64,000 nucleotides of DNA from an uncultured bacterium (GTDB lineage Bacteria > Patescibacteriota > Minisyncoccia > Phycocordibacterales > UBA6065), in assembly GCA_966243015.1 (NCBI GenBank), contig CBIMES010000002.1, positions 48,518 through 112,517 of the forward strand. Reading direction: 5' to 3'. Position 1 is the stretch's first letter. Each line of letters starts with the position of its first letter. Below, piece by piece: positions 10,585 through 56,707 of this stretch. The notes beneath the pieces are model-generated. The model saw only the letters and a list, made by a program, of their open reading frames with translations. It searched no databases and was not told where the DNA came from. The position numbers and the translations under genes are program-made.

Positions 10585-10657
10585 GAACAGTCACTCAGTT
10601 CAGGAAGCCGCCGCCAGGCGGTTTTCTTGTCGTTGTCCCGCACTTCAGACCTCGGGC

Positions 10658-10683
10658 TATAATGCAAATGAGTTGCATATAAT
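10658..10683. promoter_or_regulatory. Palindromic operator candidate TGCAA-N5-TTGCA overlapping a TATAAT -10 box upstream of the ZIP transporter gene
   Basis: tataATGCAAatgagTTGCATataat. The same half-sites recur upstream of the Fur-family gene at 54908-54922. Confidence 0.5.
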
Positions 10684-10724
10684 TCTGCGTCGCGCTATAC
10701 TCGTCATCACAACAACGAACAACT

Positions 10725-11537
10725 ATGATACCCGTACTCATCGCCGCCTTCGTCATCATGCTCGCGTCCCTCTCGGGAATCCTCTTTGTGTGGAAGAGGC
10801 TCGGCAGATGGACGGAGAGCAACATCCGCTATCTCGCCACCTGCTCTATCGGAGTTTTCACGGTCATCATCGTCGGGCTCTTCGGCGAGGCCCTCGAGCA
10901 CCAGAGCGCGTGGAACGTCGCCCTCTACGCCCTCGCGGGGCTTGCGGCCATCAGCATCACCGTCAAGCTCATCCCCAACGCCCACCACCATCACGAGGGC
11001 GGCGACCACGATCACTCCCCCATCGACGCCCGACGCATGCTCCTCGGCGACGCGGTGCACAACATAGGGGACGGCCTGCTCCTCGTACCCGCCTTTGCCG
11101 CCGACCTTCACGCGGGCATCGCCGCCTCCATCGCCATCTTCTTCCACGAGTTCGTGCAGGAAACCTCAGAGTTCTTTGTACTCAAGCAGGCAGGGTACTC
11201 AACCGGGCAGGCGCTCGCCAAGAACTTCCTCGTATCGTCAACCATTCTCGTCGGAGTCGCCCTTTCGCTGGCCCTCTCTTCTGTAGACGGCCTTGCCGAC
11301 GCGCTCGTGCCGTTTGCCGCGGGCGGCTTCCTCTACGTCGTCCTTCGAGACCTCGTGCCGCACACCGTTGGCTCCATACAAAGGCACGGCAAACCGCACC
11401 TCCACCTCGGCAGCCTTATCCTGGGAGCGGCCATTATGATCCTCGTAACCCTCCTCGCACCCCACTCCCACGAGGAAGGAGACACTCACGCCGACGAATT
11501 GCCGAAGGCCGGGGAACGTGCTTTAATGGGGTCCTAG
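10725..11537 (+). CDS. zupT: ZIP-family divalent metal (zinc) transporter
   Basis: Eight TM helices, a His-rich loop HHHHEGGDHDHSP, and the ZIP signatures HNIGDGLLL and HEFVQE. Confidence 0.8.
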   Translation: MIPVLIAAFVIMLASLSGILFVWKRLGRWTESNIRYLATCSIGVFTVIIVGLFGEALEHQSAWNVALYALAGLAAISITVKLIPNAHHHHEGGDHDHSPIDARRMLLGDAVHNIGDGLLLVPAFAADLHAGIAASIAIFFHEFVQETSEFFVLKQAGYSTGQALAKNFLVSSTILVGVALSLALSSVDGLADALVPFAAGGFLYVVLRDLVPHTVGSIQRHGKPHLHLGSLILGAAIMILVTLLAPHSHEEGDTHADELPKAGERALMGS

Positions 11538-11558: not shown

Positions 11559-12071
11559 TTGATTAAAGACAGAATTCGCGTCAATCACCAGATTAAGGCA
11601 CCTCAGGTCCGCGTCATCGGCGCCGAGGGCGAGAACGTTGGCGTAATTTCTATCAGCGAGGCCCTCTCCATGGCCCACGCAGCGGGTCTCGACCTCATCG
11701 AGATCTCGCCTAACGCCCAGCCACCCGTAGCCAAGATCATGGACTACGGCAAGTTCCAGTACGAGGAGAGCAAGAAGCAGAAGGCCGCAAAGGCAAAGTC
11801 CCACACCGTCGAGATCAAGAGCCTCCAGGTTAAGATCGGCACCGGAGACCACGACCTCGCCCTCAAGGCAAAAAAAGCCTCAGAGTGGCTCAAGGAGGGT
11901 CAGAGAATCAAAATCGACCTCTTCCTCCCTGGTAGGTCAAAGTATATGGACCCCAAGTTCCTCGAGGAGCGCCTTCAGCGCATCTTGACCCTCATCAGCG
12001 AGGAGTACAAGATCGCCGAGAAGCCCCAGAAGAGCCCGAAAGGCCTCACCACCATCATCGAGCGAGCCTAG
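11559..12071 (+). CDS. infC: Translation initiation factor IF-3
   Basis: IF-3 N- and C-terminal domains (INHQIKAPQVRVIGAEGENVGVI...; VKIGTGDHDLALKAKKASEWLKEGQRIKIDLFLPGR). Non-ATG start (TTG at 11559, or ATT at 11562), as is typical for infC. Confidence 0.9.
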   Translation: MIKDRIRVNHQIKAPQVRVIGAEGENVGVISISEALSMAHAAGLDLIEISPNAQPPVAKIMDYGKFQYEESKKQKAAKAKSHTVEIKSLQVKIGTGDHDLALKAKKASEWLKEGQRIKIDLFLPGRSKYMDPKFLEERLQRILTLISEEYKIAEKPQKSPKGLTTIIERA

Positions 12072-12090
12072 GCCTCCAAGGTTCGCAAAA

Positions 12091-12127
12091 ATACAACACT
12101 CTTGCATAATGTGCAAGAGTGTTGTAT
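12091..12127 (+). terminator. Perfect 16-bp hairpin after infC (atacaacactcttgca-taatg-tgcaagagtgttgtat)
   Basis: Seen directly in the sequence. There is no long T-tract, so it may be a terminator or an RNA processing/regulatory hairpin. Confidence 0.45.
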
Positions 12128-12193: not shown

Positions 12194-12820
12194 ATGAAAC
12201 GCGTAATCGCTCTTATCGTGGCGTTCGTCGCCACTGCCCTGCCCCTCATATCGGCGCAGGCATACCGCTATGACTTTTCGGGGACTATCGAGGAATCGAG
12301 CTACCCGACAAGCCTCCCGACGGGCACCTTATTCTCCGGGCACATCACCGTTGACTGGGACCTCCTCACGGAAATAACCTTCTTCAATGATGCGGCTTCG
12401 TCGATACAGGCAACCATAACCGGGGGAGATCTTACGGTCGGCGGCTACGATTACGACTTTATCGTCGCCTCCGCGGGGTTTAGCTTCCAGATATACTTCG
12501 GACCGGCTGACCCTGATCTCCGGTTTGACGGGTTCAGGGATACCGGAGACTCGGGGCTCACCCTCCCCGGTGCAACCGAGCCGTTCTCCTACGTATCGGG
12601 AGGAGAGATTCCCCAAAGCCTCGTCCTTGGCGAATTTCTCGCCGGCGGAACCCTGGTGATCGCGGCAGTAGACCAGGACACCTGGGAAAGCGCCTCGGCG
12701 ACAGGTTCGATAGCCCTCACGTCGGCAACCGCCATACCCGAGCCCTCAGCGGCGGGCGCCTTGGCAGGGATCCTGGCCGCCATGATTGCCGTAGGCGTCA
12801 GGGACAGAAGAAGGGCCTAA
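12194..12820 (+). CDS. Secreted protein with a C-terminal PEP-CTERM sorting signal (paralogue of 1641..2246)
   Basis: Signal peptide MKRVIALIVAFVATALPLISAQA. C-terminus IPEPSAAGALAGILAAMIAVGVRDRRRA. The N-terminal region aligns with the 1641..2246 protein (FSG..ES..P....G...SG.I.VD.DL). Confidence 0.75.
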   Translation: MKRVIALIVAFVATALPLISAQAYRYDFSGTIEESSYPTSLPTGTLFSGHITVDWDLLTEITFFNDAASSIQATITGGDLTVGGYDYDFIVASAGFSFQIYFGPADPDLRFDGFRDTGDSGLTLPGATEPFSYVSGGEIPQSLVLGEFLAGGTLVIAAVDQDTWESASATGSIALTSATAIPEPSAAGALAGILAAMIAVGVRDRRRA

Positions 12821-50681: not shown

Positions 50682-51413
50682 CTAGGAGCAAGCGCAGTAG
50701 TCATTGCCCGATCCAGAGCACACAGACACGGCGGCGGGATTCGGGATGCAGCTGATGAAACCCGGCTCGACAAAACAAGGACCGCTCGGACCCGTAAACT
50801 TCCAAGGGCACACGCTTCCGTACATGCCGTTTCCTCCGCCGCACTCTGGCCTTCCGTACGTTGTGCAGAAACTAACCGTACCCATCGGATAGGAGAAATA
50901 GACAGCATTCGGATCAGTGTAAGGAGTTGAGGTGGTATATGAAGATATGCAGGTGGTATACGGCTGTTGAACAGGCATAATCGCACAGCTGTTCTTCGAG
51001 GCCTGGGCCTGACCCGTGACGAGAGAGGCTCCGAACGCGGACTGATCGGCGGACGAGTCGGCGTAGTACACGTAGGAATCATCCTTGCTGTCAGGGATAG
51101 CGGAGATGTATCCCCCGCTCACGAGCTCCTGCATGCTCGCATTGAAAGCCTGGGTACCCTCAAGTGCGATTGAGTCTCCCGTGCCACCCGCACAATAATT
51201 GCCGCCACAGTTGTAATTGCGTGGCACCTTTCCCGTGGCGCTCTTCTTGATACTGATCGCCGTCTCGACCTGGTGAACCTGTGACTTCTTGTTTGCGTCG
51301 CTGGCCTTGGCACGCGCCGAGGCGGTCGAGTACATGGTAACGCTCGAAACAAGGGACACGATCGATACTACGACCAAGAGCTCAATAAGAGTGAAGCCGC
51401 GCCTGAGAAACAT
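50682..51413 (-). CDS. Type IV pilin-like protein, Cys-rich C-terminal domain
   Basis: N-terminus MFLRRGFTLIELLVVVSIVSLVSSV, with many paired cysteines. Co-oriented with, and immediately downstream of, pgk. Confidence 0.7.
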   Translation of the reverse strand: MFLRRGFTLIELLVVVSIVSLVSSVTMYSTASARAKASDANKKSQVHQVETAISIKKSATGKVPRNYNCGGNYCAGGTGDSIALEGTQAFNASMQELVSGGYISAIPDSKDDSYVYYADSSADQSAFGASLVTGQAQASKNSCAIMPVQQPYTTCISSYTTSTPYTDPNAVYFSYPMGTVSFCTTYGRPECGGGNGMYGSVCPWKFTGPSGPCFVEPGFISCIPNPAAVSVCSGSGNDYCACS

Positions 51414-51423
51414 GTATGTGAAA

Positions 51424-52551
51424 TTATCGCTTTAATACCTCAATGCCAGGGAGCGTGCCGTCCGCAAGAAACTGAAGCATGGCGCCGCCGCCCGTCGAGA
51501 CGAAGGAGAACTTGTCGAGAAGGTCTGCCTTCGAGACAACGGCGATGGTGTCTCCACCACCGATAATGGTCTTTACGCCACTTTCGACAAGGGCCTTGGC
51601 GAGACCCTCGGTTCCCTCGGAGAAACCGTGCTCGTAATCGCCGAGAGGGCCGTTCCAGAGAACGAACTGCGCGTCAGTGAGGATGTCAGAGAGTTCGCCA
51701 ATGGTCTTTGGGCCAGCGTCCATGATCTTGTCATCAGGACTAATACCCTCGGCACCCTTCACCTCGCGTGCGGACACGCTTGCCGCAACGACGTCAGTCG
51801 GAACAATGAGGCGAGGATTCGCCTCGATATGCTTGAGGTTCACGTGAACCTTGGAAACCATGGACTGACCGATCTCGTAGCCCTTCTCCTTGAAAATGTC
51901 GTTCGAGAGCGCCCCTCCGACGAACACATAGTCGGCGATGCCAAGGAACTTCTCGATGAGAGGAAGCTTGGTATCGAACTTCGCGCCGCCGAGCACAAAG
52001 AGAAACGGATGCGGAGGGTTGAACGCCTGCGAAAGCTGCTCAATCTCCTGCGCCATGAGGAATCCGGCAAAGGCCGGGAGGAGCTTTGGCACAGACACGA
52101 CCGAAGCGTGGGCTCGATGCGACACGGCAAAGGCATCGTTCACGTAGATATCGGCAAGGCTCGCGAGCTTCGAGGCGAACACGGGATTATTCTCTTTCTC
52201 GCCCGGATTGAGACGCAGATTCTCGAGCATGACAATCTCCCCTTCTGCCAGAGAGGAAACCACGCTTGGAGCGTCATCGAGATTCGAGATGAACGCCTTA
52301 ACAGGGACGAACTGCTGCAAATACGTGGCGACACGAGCAAGGGTCTTCACCGACTCGCTTTCGAGGTGGCTCATAATGATGACTCTCGCACCAGCCTCCC
52401 TGAGGAAGCGAAGCGTCTGAAGAGATCGCTGAATGCGGAAATCGTCGCGAACCTCACCCTCGACGATCGGAACATTGAAATCGAGGCGAAGCAGCACGCG
52501 CTTGCCGCGAAGGTCCTTCTCGTCAGCGATTTTCTTAATTTCCGTTGGCAT
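51424..52551 (-). CDS. pgk: Phosphoglycerate kinase
   Basis: 375 aa with a canonical PGK sequence (RLDFNVP...; GGGA...). Confidence 0.95.
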   Translation of the reverse strand: MPTEIKKIADEKDLRGKRVLLRLDFNVPIVEGEVRDDFRIQRSLQTLRFLREAGARVIIMSHLESESVKTLARVATYLQQFVPVKAFISNLDDAPSVVSSLAEGEIVMLENLRLNPGEKENNPVFASKLASLADIYVNDAFAVSHRAHASVVSVPKLLPAFAGFLMAQEIEQLSQAFNPPHPFLFVLGGAKFDTKLPLIEKFLGIADYVFVGGALSNDIFKEKGYEIGQSMVSKVHVNLKHIEANPRLIVPTDVVAASVSAREVKGAEGISPDDKIMDAGPKTIGELSDILTDAQFVLWNGPLGDYEHGFSEGTEGLAKALVESGVKTIIGGGDTIAVVSKADLLDKFSFVSTGGGAMLQFLADGTLPGIEVLKR

Positions 52552-53308
52552 AGGTGATGATGTTACCGAACCCCTCGATGTCGAGGCTCTGTCGGCCGAT
52601 AAGAAGGCCGCTCACCTCCCCATCCGAGAGAATCTTCTGGGCATTCTCGAAATTGACCGAACCGCCGTAGAGCACAGGAGTCCTCAGACCCTCCTGCTTG
52701 CCCGCCGCCTCGGCGACGATTTTCTTTATATAGATGCACATCTCGTGAATATCGACCGGCGAGAGAGCCGTGTCATAGCTTTTGCCGATCGCCCAGACGG
52801 GCTCGTAGGCAATGGTTATCGATCGGAGGTGCTTCTTGTCGATGAGGGCGATGGCGGCCAGCACCTGCTCTCGCACCGTACGGAGGTAATGCGCGTGATT
52901 GTCGCGCTCCTTCTCGCCGACGCAGAGAATGACGCCGAGGCCGGCGGCGACGGCCATCTTCACCTTCTCGGCAATAACAGCGTCCGTGTCCCCTGCCGCC
53001 CGTCGCTCGCTGTGGCCGATGATCGCCCACTCAGCGCCGGCGCTCGCTACCTGAGAGGCGCTGACTGCGCCCGTGAACGAGCCTCGATCGCGATGATCTA
53101 CGTCCTGGGCGCCGAACGAAATGGCCTTTTCCCTGCCACGAGAGACGCCCTCGATGAACGGGGCCGGAGGACAGACGATAACCGAGACTTTCGGCGACTT
53201 CTGGGCGACACGCTCGACCGCCGAAGCAAGCTTTTTAGCATCTTCCAGGGTATCAGGATTCATCTTCCAGTTTCCGACAATGGTGAACTTCTTCTTGGCT
53301 GATTTCAT
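52535..53308 (-). CDS. tpiA: Triosephosphate isomerase
   Basis: IVGNWKMN...; AYEPVWAIG; YGGSV. Confidence 0.95.
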   Translation of the reverse strand: MKSAKKKFTIVGNWKMNPDTLEDAKKLASAVERVAQKSPKVSVIVCPPAPFIEGVSRGREKAISFGAQDVDHRDRGSFTGAVSASQVASAGAEWAIIGHSERRAAGDTDAVIAEKVKMAVAAGLGVILCVGEKERDNHAHYLRTVREQVLAAIALIDKKHLRSITIAYEPVWAIGKSYDTALSPVDIHEMCIYIKKIVAEAAGKQEGLRTPVLYGGSVNFENAQKILSDGEVSGLLIGRQSLDIEGFGNIITYANGN

Positions 53309-53329: not shown

Positions 53330-54481
53330 TCAGTGGTGATGATGGTGGGAATGCGAGTGAGAGTGACCCTGGTGGGAAGAGGTCGATCCGGGCCTCACTA
53401 TAAGCAAAATCGAGATAATCGTGGTCACGGGAACCGCCAGAATGAGGCCAATAGAGCCCACAAGAGTTCGCATGATCTCGGTGGCCATTATCTCCCTGTT
53501 CAATATGGAAAGGATGTCGGCGCTTGATTGATAGAACAAGAGAAGAAGAGGCAGGGCTGCGCCCACATAGGCAATAGCAAGGGCGGTGACAAGGGCACCA
53601 ATGTGCTCACGGCCAATGCGCGTGGCCTTTTTGAAGATCTCCCGCCTGGTGAGATGGGGACCCGCGGCATGAAGCTCGTCGACGGCGACCGACTGACCGA
53701 TGGCACTGTCGTAGAGCACTCCCAGAAGGCCGATGATTATGGCGCCAAGAAGAAGGCCCGAGAGGTTAATCGCCCCGCCCGCATTGAGGTTGAGGTACAT
53801 GGCGTGCTCGTCTCCATAGCCCGTGAGCATTCCCCAGCGAACCGAGACATACGCCAGGACTCCCGTAATGATGACGGTAAAGATCATGCCGAGGACGGCA
53901 GAGGTGGTTGACCTGTTGATGCCGTGGGTAATGTACGAACCAACGAGAATGATAAGCGATGCCACCGCGATCGAGACGAAAATCGGCGAATATCCCGCAA
54001 GCACCGCCGGCAGGAGAACATAGATAATAAGGAGGACGCTTCCCGCAAGCGAGACGAGGCCGCGAATACCCTGCCATCCGCCAAAGGCAATAATCACGAG
54101 CAGGAACAGGGCCGTGAAGAAGATAAGTGACGGAGACCTGTCGGGTTCGCCAAACATATACAACTCCTGACCCTCTACCGTCTGAAGTCGATGGACGAAT
54201 ATCTTGTCACCCGCGTCGACGCGAACATAATCATTCTCGATCTCGACGCTCTTCCCCTTTGCCGCACCCTCGAGGATTTCGATGAGGAGTCTCTGATACG
54301 GAGCGGTGACCTTGGTGCCCGGAACGACACGATCCTCGTCCTCGCGCACGGACTCGACGCGAGCCCTCACGGTTTCCTGAACGTCCTGGTGAAGCTCCTG
54401 CGCTGACACGAAAGACGCGCCCCACATAACAAAGAGCGCGAGGATCGCCGCCGACGCCTTGATTATCGAGAGGTTACGCAT
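53330..54481 (-). CDS. YibE/F-family membrane protein with a His-rich C-terminal tail
   Basis: Signal/TM segment, periplasmic N-terminal domain, about seven TM helices, and a C-terminus HQGHSHSHSHHHHH. Overlaps the upstream Fur-family gene by 19 nt. Confidence 0.65.
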   Translation of the reverse strand: MRNLSIIKASAAILALFVMWGASFVSAQELHQDVQETVRARVESVREDEDRVVPGTKVTAPYQRLLIEILEGAAKGKSVEIENDYVRVDAGDKIFVHRLQTVEGQELYMFGEPDRSPSLIFFTALFLLVIIAFGGWQGIRGLVSLAGSVLLIIYVLLPAVLAGYSPIFVSIAVASLIILVGSYITHGINRSTTSAVLGMIFTVIITGVLAYVSVRWGMLTGYGDEHAMYLNLNAGGAINLSGLLLGAIIIGLLGVLYDSAIGQSVAVDELHAAGPHLTRREIFKKATRIGREHIGALVTALAIAYVGAALPLLLLFYQSSADILSILNREIMATEIMRTLVGSIGLILAVPVTTIISILLIVRPGSTSSHQGHSHSHSHHHHH

Positions 54482-54888
54482 GATGAGCAGGTTCCGAACA
54501 ACTCGAATGAGTGCTTCGAGATAGTCTTGAATTTCTTGGAGTTCTTGAGAATCTCATCGCCCAGGCGAGTGAACGCGCAGAGCTCAAATCCTTCGACGAG
54601 GCCGCAGCGGAGGCACACAATGTGATGATGGTGATCGTCGGCAAGCTCGTACGAAAGAGCGTCGGCGCCGAGGGAGAGAGACCTTACAATGTCGGCATCC
54701 TCAAATGACTTAAGCGTTCGGTACACCGTCACCGTATCAATGGACGAGTCCTTCTTGGAAAGCGCCTTGAGAAGGTCTTTGACGGTAAGAGGCTTGGGTG
54801 CCGAGCGCAAAGTCGATAGAACCAGCAGGCGCACAGGGGTGGCCTTGAGCTTTGCGTCATTGAGGAGCTTCTTGTCGTGAGTGTTCAT
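54463..54888 (-). CDS. Fur-family metalloregulator (Fur/Zur/PerR-like)
   Basis: Winged-helix N-terminus, HHHHIVCLRCG...C..C metal-binding motifs; 141 aa. Confidence 0.8.
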   Translation of the reverse strand: MNTHDKKLLNDAKLKATPVRLLVLSTLRSAPKPLTVKDLLKALSKKDSSIDTVTVYRTLKSFEDADIVRSLSLGADALSYELADDHHHHIVCLRCGLVEGFELCAFTRLGDEILKNSKKFKTISKHSFELFGTCSSCVTSR

Positions 54889-54907
54889 GCGTCCATGCTA
54901 TCCCAGA

Positions 54908-54922
54908 TGCAACATGTTTGCA
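54908..54922. promoter_or_regulatory. Palindromic operator candidate TGCAA-catgt-TTGCA 20-35 nt upstream of the Fur-family gene start
   Basis: Same half-sites as 10663-10677 upstream of the ZIP transporter gene. Confidence 0.5.
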
Positions 54923-54979
54923 ATGTAAAACGGACTCGCGCAAGGGCAAATCCGTTCCAGGCACATATTGATTAATTGT

Positions 54980-56707
54980 TTATGGCCGCGAAGCGACTGT
55001 CATGACCTCTTCGATGCTCGTCAGACCTTGGGCTGCGGCGAGAACACCGTCCTCTATAAGAGTGAGCATCCCCTCCTTCTTGGCGCGCTCCTCGAGAGCG
55101 TCAGCCTTGGCACCCTTCATGACGAGCTCCTTGAGCGCGGGCGACATTCTGAGGACCTCGAAGAGGCCGATGCGTCCGGCGTACCCGTCAGTGCCCGCAG
55201 CAGCCTTCGGCGTGCCGAAGAGAACCTTGTCCCAACCATCGCGAGAGCCGATGATCTTCTCCGAGCGAAGAAGTGAGAGCAGCCTGTCGAGATCGGCGAC
55301 CCGACCCAGCGCGGCAAGCTCCGCTTTGGTAAGGGGCCTGCGATTGCGAGCGTCAGCGAGCCTGCGCACGAGCCTCTGGCTCACCACCGTCGACAGCGTC
55401 GACGAAAGCATGAATGGGTCAAGCCCCGTCTCAAGCATCTGAACGACAGCGGCGGAAGCGGAGTGAGACCTCACCATAGAGAGGATGAGTCGGCCGGACA
55501 GGGCGGCATGAGCGGCGAGCGACGTAGTGTCGGCATCGCGCACCTCCCCCACCATGATCACGTCAGCGTCCTGCCTGACGGCAGAGCGAAGACCCGCGGC
55601 GAACGTGAGGCCGATATCTGGCCTAACCTGGGTCTGAGAGACGCGAGGCATCTGGTACTCAATAGGGTCCTCGACCGTCGAGACGCTCGTATCAGGAGAA
55701 TTGACAATATCAATCATCGTATACAAAGTGGTCGAAGTGCCAGAAGACGCCGGGCCAGAGACGAGAATCATGCCCGACCCCTTTTTGAGAGCACCATGCA
55801 CACGCTCGAGCGCCTCGCCACGAAGGCCCAGATGCTCGAGGGTGAATCCCGAGGCGCTCTCACGCATGAGGCGGATGACCGTCTTCTCGCCATGCGCGGT
55901 AGGAGCGATCGATACGCGCAGCGAAACCTTCTCGTGATTCATCTCAACCTTGAAGCGACCGTCCTGGGGCACATCCCTCTCCCCGACCCTCAGCTTGGCG
56001 AGCGACTTGATGCGCGCGGCAAGACCGATCTCGGTCTCTTTAGGCAAGACCATGGCATCGTGAAGCGAGCCGTTGATACGGTAGCGAACCAACAGATCCC
56101 TCTCGAGAGGCTCTATGTGTATATCGGAAGCGTTCTGAACAATCGCGTGCTTGAGAAGGGTGTCGAGAACACGGACCACCGACAAATCGTCGGCAAGCCT
56201 GAGAGAGCTAACGCCCGCCTGATTCCTGAGAATGCCCGTCTCCTTCCTTATAATGTCTCCAAACTCTGACTTGAGGCCTCTCTGATAGCGAAGAAGCGCC
56301 GATTTCATTGACTCAGCGTCCGTAAAGCGAGGCAAAACCTTGAGACCCACCTTCTTTGCCAAGAAATCAATGGACGAGAGAGCCCGAAGATCGAGCAGGG
56401 CAACCTCCAGAGCGACCTCTCCCTTCTTGTAGGCGATGACGTTGTGGTTTCGAGCAATAGGCTCAGGAATAAGAGAAAGCGTCTCAAAATCAATCTTCTT
56501 CGAAGAAAGGTCGACGAAGGGAATGCCGAGAATGTATGACTGAACGCGGCGGAAGTCATCTTCCGAAAGGTGACCCTCGCTTACGAGGACCTCACCGAGG
56601 CTCTTGCCCGTATCCTGGGCATCCCTCTGGTACTCGGAAATGTCCCTGCGGGACACGAGACCCGAGCTGATGATGAAGTCCCTGAGCTGTGCGTCGCCAA
56701 TGAGCAT
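54980..56707 (-). CDS. GspE/PilB-family secretion ATPase homologue with degenerate catalytic motifs (predicted non-catalytic paralogue)
   Basis: T2SE N-terminal domain and ATPase core are present. Walker A reads GPASSGTST (no Lys), the His box reads LSMVRSHS, and the tetracysteine motif is absent. Asp box VEDPIEY and Walker B DVIMVGEVRD are conserved. Confidence 0.7.
   Translation of the reverse strand: MLIGDAQLRDFIISSGLVSRRDISEYQRDAQDTGKSLGEVLVSEGHLSEDDFRRVQSYILGIPFVDLSSKKIDFETLSLIPEPIARNHNVIAYKKGEVALEVALLDLRALSSIDFLAKKVGLKVLPRFTDAESMKSALLRYQRGLKSEFGDIIRKETGILRNQAGVSSLRLADDLSVVRVLDTLLKHAIVQNASDIHIEPLERDLLVRYRINGSLHDAMVLPKETEIGLAARIKSLAKLRVGERDVPQDGRFKVEMNHEKVSLRVSIAPTAHGEKTVIRLMRESASGFTLEHLGLRGEALERVHGALKKGSGMILVSGPASSGTSTTLYTMIDIVNSPDTSVSTVEDPIEYQMPRVSQTQVRPDIGLTFAAGLRSAVRQDADVIMVGEVRDADTTSLAAHAALSGRLILSMVRSHSASAAVVQMLETGLDPFMLSSTLSTVVSQRLVRRLADARNRRPLTKAELAALGRVADLDRLLSLLRSEKIIGSRDGWDKVLFGTPKAAAGTDGYAGRIGLFEVLRMSPALKELVMKGAKADALEERAKKEGMLTLIEDGVLAAAQGLTSIEEVMTVASRP

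Follow-up and report, generated by a model that had tools for sequence, protein, structure and literature searches.

Among the closest described relatives of the system discussed here are those of alpha-proteobacteria, in which mntH and sitABCD are preceded by the boxes of the regulators Mur and Fur-alpha, palindromes of 19 bp (Rodionov et al. 2006, PMC1698941). The Fur protein of Magnetospirillum gryphiswaldense (MgFur) was crystallised on 5'-TTAATTGCAAATCATTTGCAATTGC-3', the symmetrised feoAB1 operator, with one dimer per site, Arg57 contacting G, Tyr56 contacting TT and Lys15 lying in the minor groove (Deng et al. 2015, PMC4506495). Here, we consider two copies of a palindrome, TGCAA-N5-TTGCA, in a 64-kb stretch of contig CBIMES010000002.1 from an uncultured bacterium (called the window below, with a G+C content of about 55%), whose proteins are most like those of metagenome-assembled genomes (MAGs) labelled Candidatus Paceibacterota (Patescibacteria / Candidate Phyla Radiation). 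One copy precedes the gene of a Fur-family metalloregulator and the other, 44 kb away, that of a ZIP-family metal importer. We will argue from comparisons between genomes that both palindromes are very probably operators of this Fur-family protein, a repressor that would silence its own operon and the importer and that most likely responds to zinc. Very little has been described of how Patescibacteria (Candidate Phyla Radiation) regulate transcription.

The pattern TGCAANNNNNTTGCA (TGCAA-N5-TTGCA) has exactly two matches in the window, at 10663-10677 and 54908-54922. A preliminary description of this DNA, in which the sites were quoted as aATGCAAatgagTTGCATa and gATGCAAcatgtTTGCAAt, had pointed to two copies with identical half-sites and identical spacing, one of them just upstream of the Fur-family gene, and both statements hold: the latter copy lies 20-34 nt upstream of the ATG at 54888, and the other 48-62 nt upstream of the start of the ZIP gene. 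For a pattern specified beforehand, 0.01 matches would be expected, and none of 100 shuffles of the window gave two. It is important to point out, however, that the pattern was picked after inspection and that 15 different 5-N5-5 palindrome arms recur at least twice in the window, compared to 2.4 in shuffles. Recurrence within the window is therefore rejected as sufficient proof, and the case rests on other genomes. As a side observation, the recurring arms are mostly GC-rich.

A 23-homologue alignment of the regulator was used to fetch 80 loci, comprising 1.13 Mb, from species-representative genomes. The assemblies are labelled Patescibacteria, Paceibacteria or similar, and their regulators are 36-74% identical to the window protein. 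The loci were retrieved by peptides specific to the regulator subfamily and are uninformative on other Fur paralogues; gene starts were estimated via alignments and longest open reading frames (ORFs). The exact palindrome is found 74 times in this set, against about 1.2 copies expected from base composition, which corresponds to a ca 60-fold enrichment, while 59 other palindromes generated by permuting the half-site occur once at the median and five times at most. No more than 250 nt separate the site from the regulator gene downstream in 61 of the 74 cases, and in nine the distance is about 770 nt, the site being located before a preceding 241-aa gene that represents a second ZIP subfamily. 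Only 3-4 of the 74 adjoin neither regulator, ZIP nor YibE/F genes. Counted by locus, an exact site is found within 250 nt in 51 and before the preceding ZIP gene in nine, and a further nine have only a one-mismatch site, which gives 69 of 80 loci with an exact or one-mismatch site at promoter position. In the one-mismatch variants the other arm never compensates, and this fits protein-DNA recognition rather than a hairpin. One MAG, MFD01223.bin.2.9, has two regulator paralogues on different contigs (L009 and L036), one of which follows two exact motif copies and the other a copy with one mismatch.

In close relatives, conservation upstream of the regulators of L083, L084 and L001 (84%, 81% and 74% identical to the window protein) is limited to ATTGCAAA, TTGCA and a GATAGCATG block; the half-sites are invariant there, and the central five bases and the flanks vary. 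The gene order in L083 and L084 is nusA, pilB-like ATPase, regulator, YibE/F, tpiA and pgk. On the ZIP side, four contigs with orthologues of 68-87% identity (L081 and L085-L087) have the same local gene order, two of them reaching infC. TGCAA-N5-TTGCA is retained upstream of ZIP in every one of them and a GTATACT block in most, while the remaining intergenic sequence diverges. At orthologous promoters, the half-sites of the inverted repeat do not vary, its spacer is free and its flanks diverge, as is characteristic of an operator in general. The consensus of the 74 sites, TAaWTGCAAaTnAtTTGCAWtTA, is a 7-1-7 inverted repeat, TGCAAAT-N-ATTTGCA. With a position weight matrix (PWM) built from the same 74 sites, the two palindromes are the best hits in the window, which was the part of its own genome that was scanned, and the next-best scores, 9.0 and 7.6, belong to two arms of an unrelated hairpin.

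We now turn to the position of the palindromes relative to the promoters. Among the 51 regulator-proximal sites, a TANNNT hexamer resembling a -10 element begins 22 nt after the start of the site in 33 cases; in 12 cases the distance is 33 nt. If the spacer has 17 nt, the -35 element falls on the upstream half-site (WTGCAA) in the first class, to which the regulator promoter of the window belongs, and on the downstream half-site (TTGCAW) in the second, to which its ZIP promoter belongs. The preliminary description had stated that both sites overlap promoter elements and had placed the ZIP site on a -10 box. The first of these statements may hold in modified form, in that one half-site coincides with the predicted -35 element of a conserved promoter and the palindrome extends over the spacer, but not over the -10 element. 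The second is not supported: neither of the TATAAT hexamers beside the ZIP site (10658-10663 and 10678-10683) is kept in the promoters of orthologues, and both were rejected as -10 elements in favour of the TATACT at 10696-10701. A generic promoter scan of the window reported neither promoter, both being under its threshold of 9/12 matches. The ZIP gene is preceded by a conserved terminator-like hairpin, which implies that it has a promoter of its own.

In the offset-22 loci, the -10-like hexamer is usually 6-8 nt before the ATG. The window (54886-54900, minus strand) and many of the loci L001-L080 show this arrangement without a Shine-Dalgarno sequence. A -10 hexamer only 6 nt before the start codon implies a leaderless or near-leaderless mRNA, and the pattern suggests such a regulator mRNA across Paceibacteria. 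In the window, transcription is predicted to begin at about 54888 for the regulator and near 10708 for ZIP.

From these data we infer binding of the regulator, repression and autoregulation in the following form. A metal-loaded dimer would bind the 7-1-7 inverted repeat at both sites and cover the -35 hexamer and the spacer. Since a half-site coincides with the predicted -35 hexamer in both promoters, the bound repressor would exclude RNA polymerase, and polymerase exclusion by a dimer over the promoter is the usual mode of repression in the Fur family. Under metal scarcity the repressor would leave the DNA, such that its own operon, with YibE/F and possible read-through into tpiA-pgk, and also the ZIP importer 44 kb away would be de-repressed. 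The co-repressor would most likely be Zn(II), and the protein hence Zur-like; no other step of the scheme is as uncertain. The coordinates of all features are collected in the table.

Table. Features of the two loci in the window (positions and strands of the window) and, in the last row, of a gene family in related loci.
Feature	Position	Strand	Remarks
Operator core, Fur-family gene	54908..54922	.	exact match; extended 23-bp site 54904-54926; PWM 17.0 bits
Operator core, ZIP gene	10663..10677	.	exact match; extended 23-bp site 10659-10681; PWM 25.8 bits
Predicted -35 TTGCAA, regulator promoter	54918..54923	-	upstream operator half-site; 17 nt before conserved TAGCAT
Predicted -10 TAGCAT, regulator promoter	54895..54900	-	6 nt before ATG; GATAGCATG or GATACCATG in L083, L084, L001
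Predicted -35 TTGCAT, ZIP promoter	10673..10678	+	downstream operator half-site; 17 nt before conserved TATACT
Predicted -10 TATACT, ZIP promoter	10696..10701	+	GTATACT or GTATCAT kept in L085-L087; weaker match in L081
Fur-family metalloregulator gene	54463..54888	-	141 aa, ATG at 54888; PF01475 E=9.6e-24; predicted repressor for both sites
YibE/F membrane protein gene	53330..54481	-	383 aa; PF07907 E=1.4e-66; predicted co-transcribed target
tpiA	52535..53308	-	downstream of YibE/F
pgk	51424..52551	-	downstream of YibE/F, same strand
Type IV pilin-like ORF (MFLRRGFTLIELL...)	50682..51413	-	same strand as regulator
ZIP-family metal importer gene	10725..11537	+	270 aa; PF02535 E=2.9e-22; predicted repressed target
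Terminator-like hairpin and T-run, end of gene before ZIP	10610..10622	+	terminator scan; GCCGCC...GGCGG TTTT kept in orthologues
P-loop ATPase loci in relatives	L075:8785-9750 region; also L009, L024, L028, L037, L042, L046, L065, L074	divergent	PF01656

The regulator itself is a clear member of the Fur family. The PF01475 match reaches 84.3 bits against a cut-off of 23.1 and runs over residues 13-123, covering the winged-helix and dimerisation domains, and there are 22 matches to solved Fur-family chains. Twenty-three family members share P33, T54, Y56, R57, E81, the HHHH motif at 86-89, C92/C95, E99, H126 and C134/C137 without exception, so that the structural marks of the family, two CxxC pairs (C92/C95 and C134/C137) and an HHxH-type hinge motif (H86-H89), are present. 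The DNA-reading residues of MgFur, T54, Y56 and R57, are thus invariant in the Paceibacterial family, and K15 is found in the window protein. An extra cysteine at position 104 is nearly invariant. Judged by its sequence, the protein belongs to neither the curated Fur-alpha/Mur nor the Zur subgroup.

Within about 3 kb of the regulator, ZIP genes are found in 49 of the 80 loci and YibE/F genes in 40. As many as 43 of the 49 ZIP genes are linked to a site, 28 through an exact or one-mismatch site of their own upstream and 15 by being directly downstream of a site-bearing regulator; by the same linkage criteria, 27 of 41 YibE/F genes are linked. The window represents an arrangement in which ZIP has left this neighbourhood for a position 44 kb away, its own operator being retained. 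A ZnuA/ZnuB/ZnuC-type ABC transporter recurs in 7-8 loci. Nine loci have a ParA/MinD/ArsA-like P-loop ATPase, which is divergent from the regulator and accompanied by an operator copy in all nine; it could be a metallochaperone, and no homologue is found in the 64-kb window. Among the families that recur in the neighbourhood (about 3 kb) of the 80 Paceibacterial regulators, Nramp and FeoB are absent, and ribosomal-protein paralogues and COG0523 genes were likewise not seen near the regulator. The proposal of the preliminary description, an autoregulated metalloregulator controlling a metal importer, finds support in comparative evidence: the palindrome is kept upstream of regulator orthologues across about 80 Patescibacterial genomes and, in close relatives, at unlinked ZIP orthologues, and regulator, ZIP and YibE/F cluster around the motif in most related genomes.

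The box has a still wider distribution. An unbiased scan of metagenome contigs with WTGCAAATNATTTGCAW gave at least 120 loci (L088-L207). In at least 34 of them the site is just upstream of metal-homeostasis genes, which include Fur-family, ZIP and YibE/F genes, and the others comprise genes of the ZnuA family (at least ten), Nramp (at least six), FeoB, CbiM and NicO (at least two each). Among the matches listed, the Nramp loci with a box are all on contigs of 61-64% G+C; 25 loci have the site within a long ORF, where it is probably there by chance. Among the listed matches, the exact 7-1-7 box also stands before aconitase-like genes, and the lineages that have it upstream of these various genes are unrelated and range from 28 to 68% G+C. 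TGCAAAT-N-ATTTGCA is a widespread Fur-family operator type and not peculiar to the genome of the window. It is probably identical to the Mur box as well, judging from the MgFur crystal operator and the Nramp/SitA-type metagenome matches.

Several points weigh against our reading or allow another. Eleven of the 80 orthologue loci have neither an exact nor a one-mismatch site, which counts against the main reading. One alternative is that the two copies are a chance coincidence, a DNA or RNA hairpin such as a terminator, or a dispersed repeat. The fifteen recurring 5-N5-5 palindromes and the post hoc choice of the pattern speak for this. The roughly 60-fold enrichment across genomes, concentrated at orthologous promoters, is hard to bring into agreement with this. 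Hairpins or terminators were rejected since both sites have folding energies like those of shuffled sequence (z-scores of -0.8 and -0.2), and mismatches in one arm are not compensated in the other. A repeat is opposed by the fact that the likeness of the two copies ends at about 20 bp and that the 64 kb contain no more than two high-scoring copies. We consider this whole group of explanations extremely unlikely. Somewhat less remote, yet still improbable, is a palindrome that is bound by a different transcription factor or that is a mere pair of -35-like TTGCAA elements, with the Fur-family gene nearby only incidentally. TTGCAA does resemble the -35 consensus TTGACA, and the half-sites coincide with the predicted -35 hexamers, but a -35 element alone would need no second, inverted half-site at a fixed 5-nt spacing. 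Another factor would also have to account for the motif tracking the Fur-family gene over 36-84% protein identity, with a mere 3-4 of the 74 sites away from regulator, ZIP and YibE/F genes, and for a Fur protein having been crystallised on the same sequence (PMC4506495).

The more serious question concerns the metal. Operator and repressor could be as described above, with Mn(II) or Fe(II) being sensed by a Mur- or Fur-like protein and with ZIP and YibE/F serving the acquisition of Mn or Fe; we regard this as a possibility to be taken seriously, although we would not bet on it. The 7-1-7 box is the operator type of the alpha-proteobacterial Mn- and Fe-responsive regulators Fur-alpha and Mur (PMC1698941, PMC4506495), and with an operator type common to Mn and Fe regulators, the box does not identify the metal. 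In metagenomes it precedes Nramp, FeoB and Glu-type SitA-like binding proteins, among the matches listed. Fur proteins are the solved structures that match the regulator best, and its residue 81 is Glu, as in Fur, and not the Cys of mycobacterial Zur at this position. ZIP proteins can carry Zn, Fe, Mn or Co. Curated models give no help to the zinc assignment either: the regulator is under all NCBIfam equivalog cut-offs (Fur, PerR, Zur and Irr), with 66 bits against 146 for Fur, 70 against 180 for PerR, and 27.1 against 167 for the Zur model NF008646, which is enterobacterial and hence weak evidence. Among solved structures, those of Fur, Nur, PerR and Zur are all about equally far from it. The His ligand that the DNA-binding domain contributes to the regulatory site of Fur and PerR is missing, an invariant P33 being found at the place of H33 in Vibrio cholerae Fur (H37 in PerR); its absence is a point against our reading, but the ligand is typical of Fe- and Mn-sensing Fur and PerR, such that its absence counts against Mn or Fe too.

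What tips the balance towards zinc, with slightly better than even confidence, are the linked binding proteins and the His-rich segments. In cluster A-I binding proteins, a His as the third ligand marks the Zn type (ZnuA, AdcA, TroA) and a Glu the Mn/Fe type (PsaA, MntC, SitA). Of the six full-length binding proteins of the ZnuA type that are linked to Paceibacterial regulators, five have His and one has the Mn-type Glu, the latter speaking against zinc. Among the metagenome matches listed, motif-linked binding proteins have His when they come from low-GC contigs, in many cases together with long loops rich in His, Asp and Glu, and have Glu when they come from high-GC contigs, with box-preceded Nramp genes in the same GC range. 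The regulator has its HHHH motif, and ZIP and YibE/F have His-rich segments. The regulator-linked genes are ZIP, the ZnuABC-type transporter and YibE/F, of which ZIP and TroA-like binding proteins are not strictly zinc-specific. The operator is of the Mur/Fur-alpha type (TGCAAAT-N-ATTTGCA), but mntH/Nramp, a Glu-type SitA or feoAB are not the regulon encountered near the 80 Paceibacterial regulators. A repressor that would act at both palindromes and, somewhat more likely than not, respond to zinc is the description that we favour.

The YibE/F protein deserves separate consideration. Its gene start overlaps the 3' end of the Fur-family gene by 19 nt, and its C-terminus is HSHSHSHHHHH; the gene calls agree with the preliminary description in these respects and in the presence of tpiA, pgk and a pilin gene on the same strand. 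An AlphaFold2 model made with 41 sequences (mean predicted local distance difference test score, pLDDT, of 84; predicted template modelling score, pTM, of 0.72) shows a single helix at the N-terminus, an external domain rich in beta structure and another five or six membrane helices, with a His-rich tail that is disordered, and in this model the fold appears RND-repeat-like. The invariant residues H186, D258, E292, H293, E330, E335 and R338 are located in the helices. By the comparative evidence, YibE/F is a conserved member of the putative Fur-family regulon in Patescibacteria. Repressed together with an importer, it should come into play under metal scarcity, which is speculative. We tentatively propose that YibE/F (PF07907) might be a membrane component that has a single-repeat RND fold, is driven by protons and takes part in the acquisition of a metal, probably zinc, co-repressed with ZIP and in some lineages also with the P-loop ATPase, the whole forming a compact metal-scavenging module specific to ultra-small, host-dependent Patescibacteria. 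No functional study of YibE was found in the literature searched.

Some observations on the surroundings of the two loci should be added. Between 51424 and 54888 on the minus strand, the regulator, YibE/F, tpiA and pgk are packed by overlaps or gaps of about 21 nt, with no terminator visible, and part of the transcription of tpiA and pgk may start at the metal-regulated promoter, provided that there are no internal ones. Upstream lies a pilB/GspE-like ATPase gene (54980-56707, minus strand), whose stop codon is separated from the operator by 57 nt (54923-54979) in which the scan found no terminator; read-through from this gene into the regulator operon is possible. Just 3' of infC (11559-12071), a hairpin with a perfect 18-bp stem is present at 12090-12127 (-26.1 kcal/mol, z = -9.4). 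It has no U-tract after it, and each of its arms resembles the operator with one mismatch. The operator-like sequences at 12092-12106 and 12112-12126 are thus the two arms of one strong hairpin and were rejected as operators. After infC, the window has a PEP-CTERM-like ORF (12194-12820), whereas relatives have rpmI and rplT.

A paper joining Patescibacteria with Fur-family regulators was not found in the literature searched, and within that literature three things appear to be new: a Patescibacterial regulon of this kind, the regular membership of YibE/F in it, and the divergent P-loop ATPase of some lineages. What emerges is a concrete and testable putative regulon of Patescibacteria, with one regulator, a 7-1-7 operator, apparently leaderless promoters and a small set of predicted targets. 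It would also provide a first functional context for the widespread YibE/F family, given by co-regulation with an importer, conserved His/Asp/Glu in the membrane, a His-rich tail and an RND-repeat-like fold. Finally, the TGCAAAT-N-ATTTGCA box seems to be used well beyond alpha-proteobacteria and with different metals, which matters when regulon predictions are transferred between phyla.

Compared with alpha-proteobacterial Fur-alpha/Mur and the MgFur-feoAB1 complex, the present system shares the protein family, the 19-bp palindrome ATTGCAAAT-N-ATTTGCAAT with essentially the same sequence, the binding of one dimer (here predicted), the conserved T54, Y56 and R57, and divalent-metal importers as targets. 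The alpha-proteobacterial regulators, on the other hand, are Mn/Fe-responsive and control mntH, sitABCD and feoAB, whereas the predicted targets in the Patescibacterium are ZIP and YibE/F, joined in relatives by the ZnuABC-type transporter and the P-loop ATPase. The Patescibacterial regulator resembles the Mur and MgFur chains only distantly (E ~1e-9 to 5fd5 and 4raz), and the His of the DNA-binding domain is missing. The Zur regulons of Bacillus subtilis, actinobacteria and enterobacteria follow the logic proposed here, with a Zn-loaded dimer repressing zinc importers via a 7-1-7 palindrome that overlaps the promoter, and the HHHH motif, the two CxxC pairs and the linkage to His-type ZnuA in relatives are Zur-like features. 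The differences are that the B. subtilis Zur box is TCGTAAT-N-ATTACGA (7-1-7), compared to TGCAAAT here, and that the regulator fails the E. coli-type Zur model. The classical Fur box (GATAATGATAATCATTATC) and the PerR box (TTATAAT-N-ATTATAA) have the same 7-1-7/19-bp inverted-repeat layout, with the outer T and the inner AAT of the heptamer in common, but the centre of the heptamer is GCA in the Paceibacterial box, GAT in that of Fur and TAT in that of PerR, and the regulon content differs as well. The PerR ligand set (equivalents of H37 and D104) is not conserved. The system is thus likely a standard Fur-family repressor-operator circuit, whose operator matches the Fur-alpha/Mur type and whose probable physiology matches Zur.
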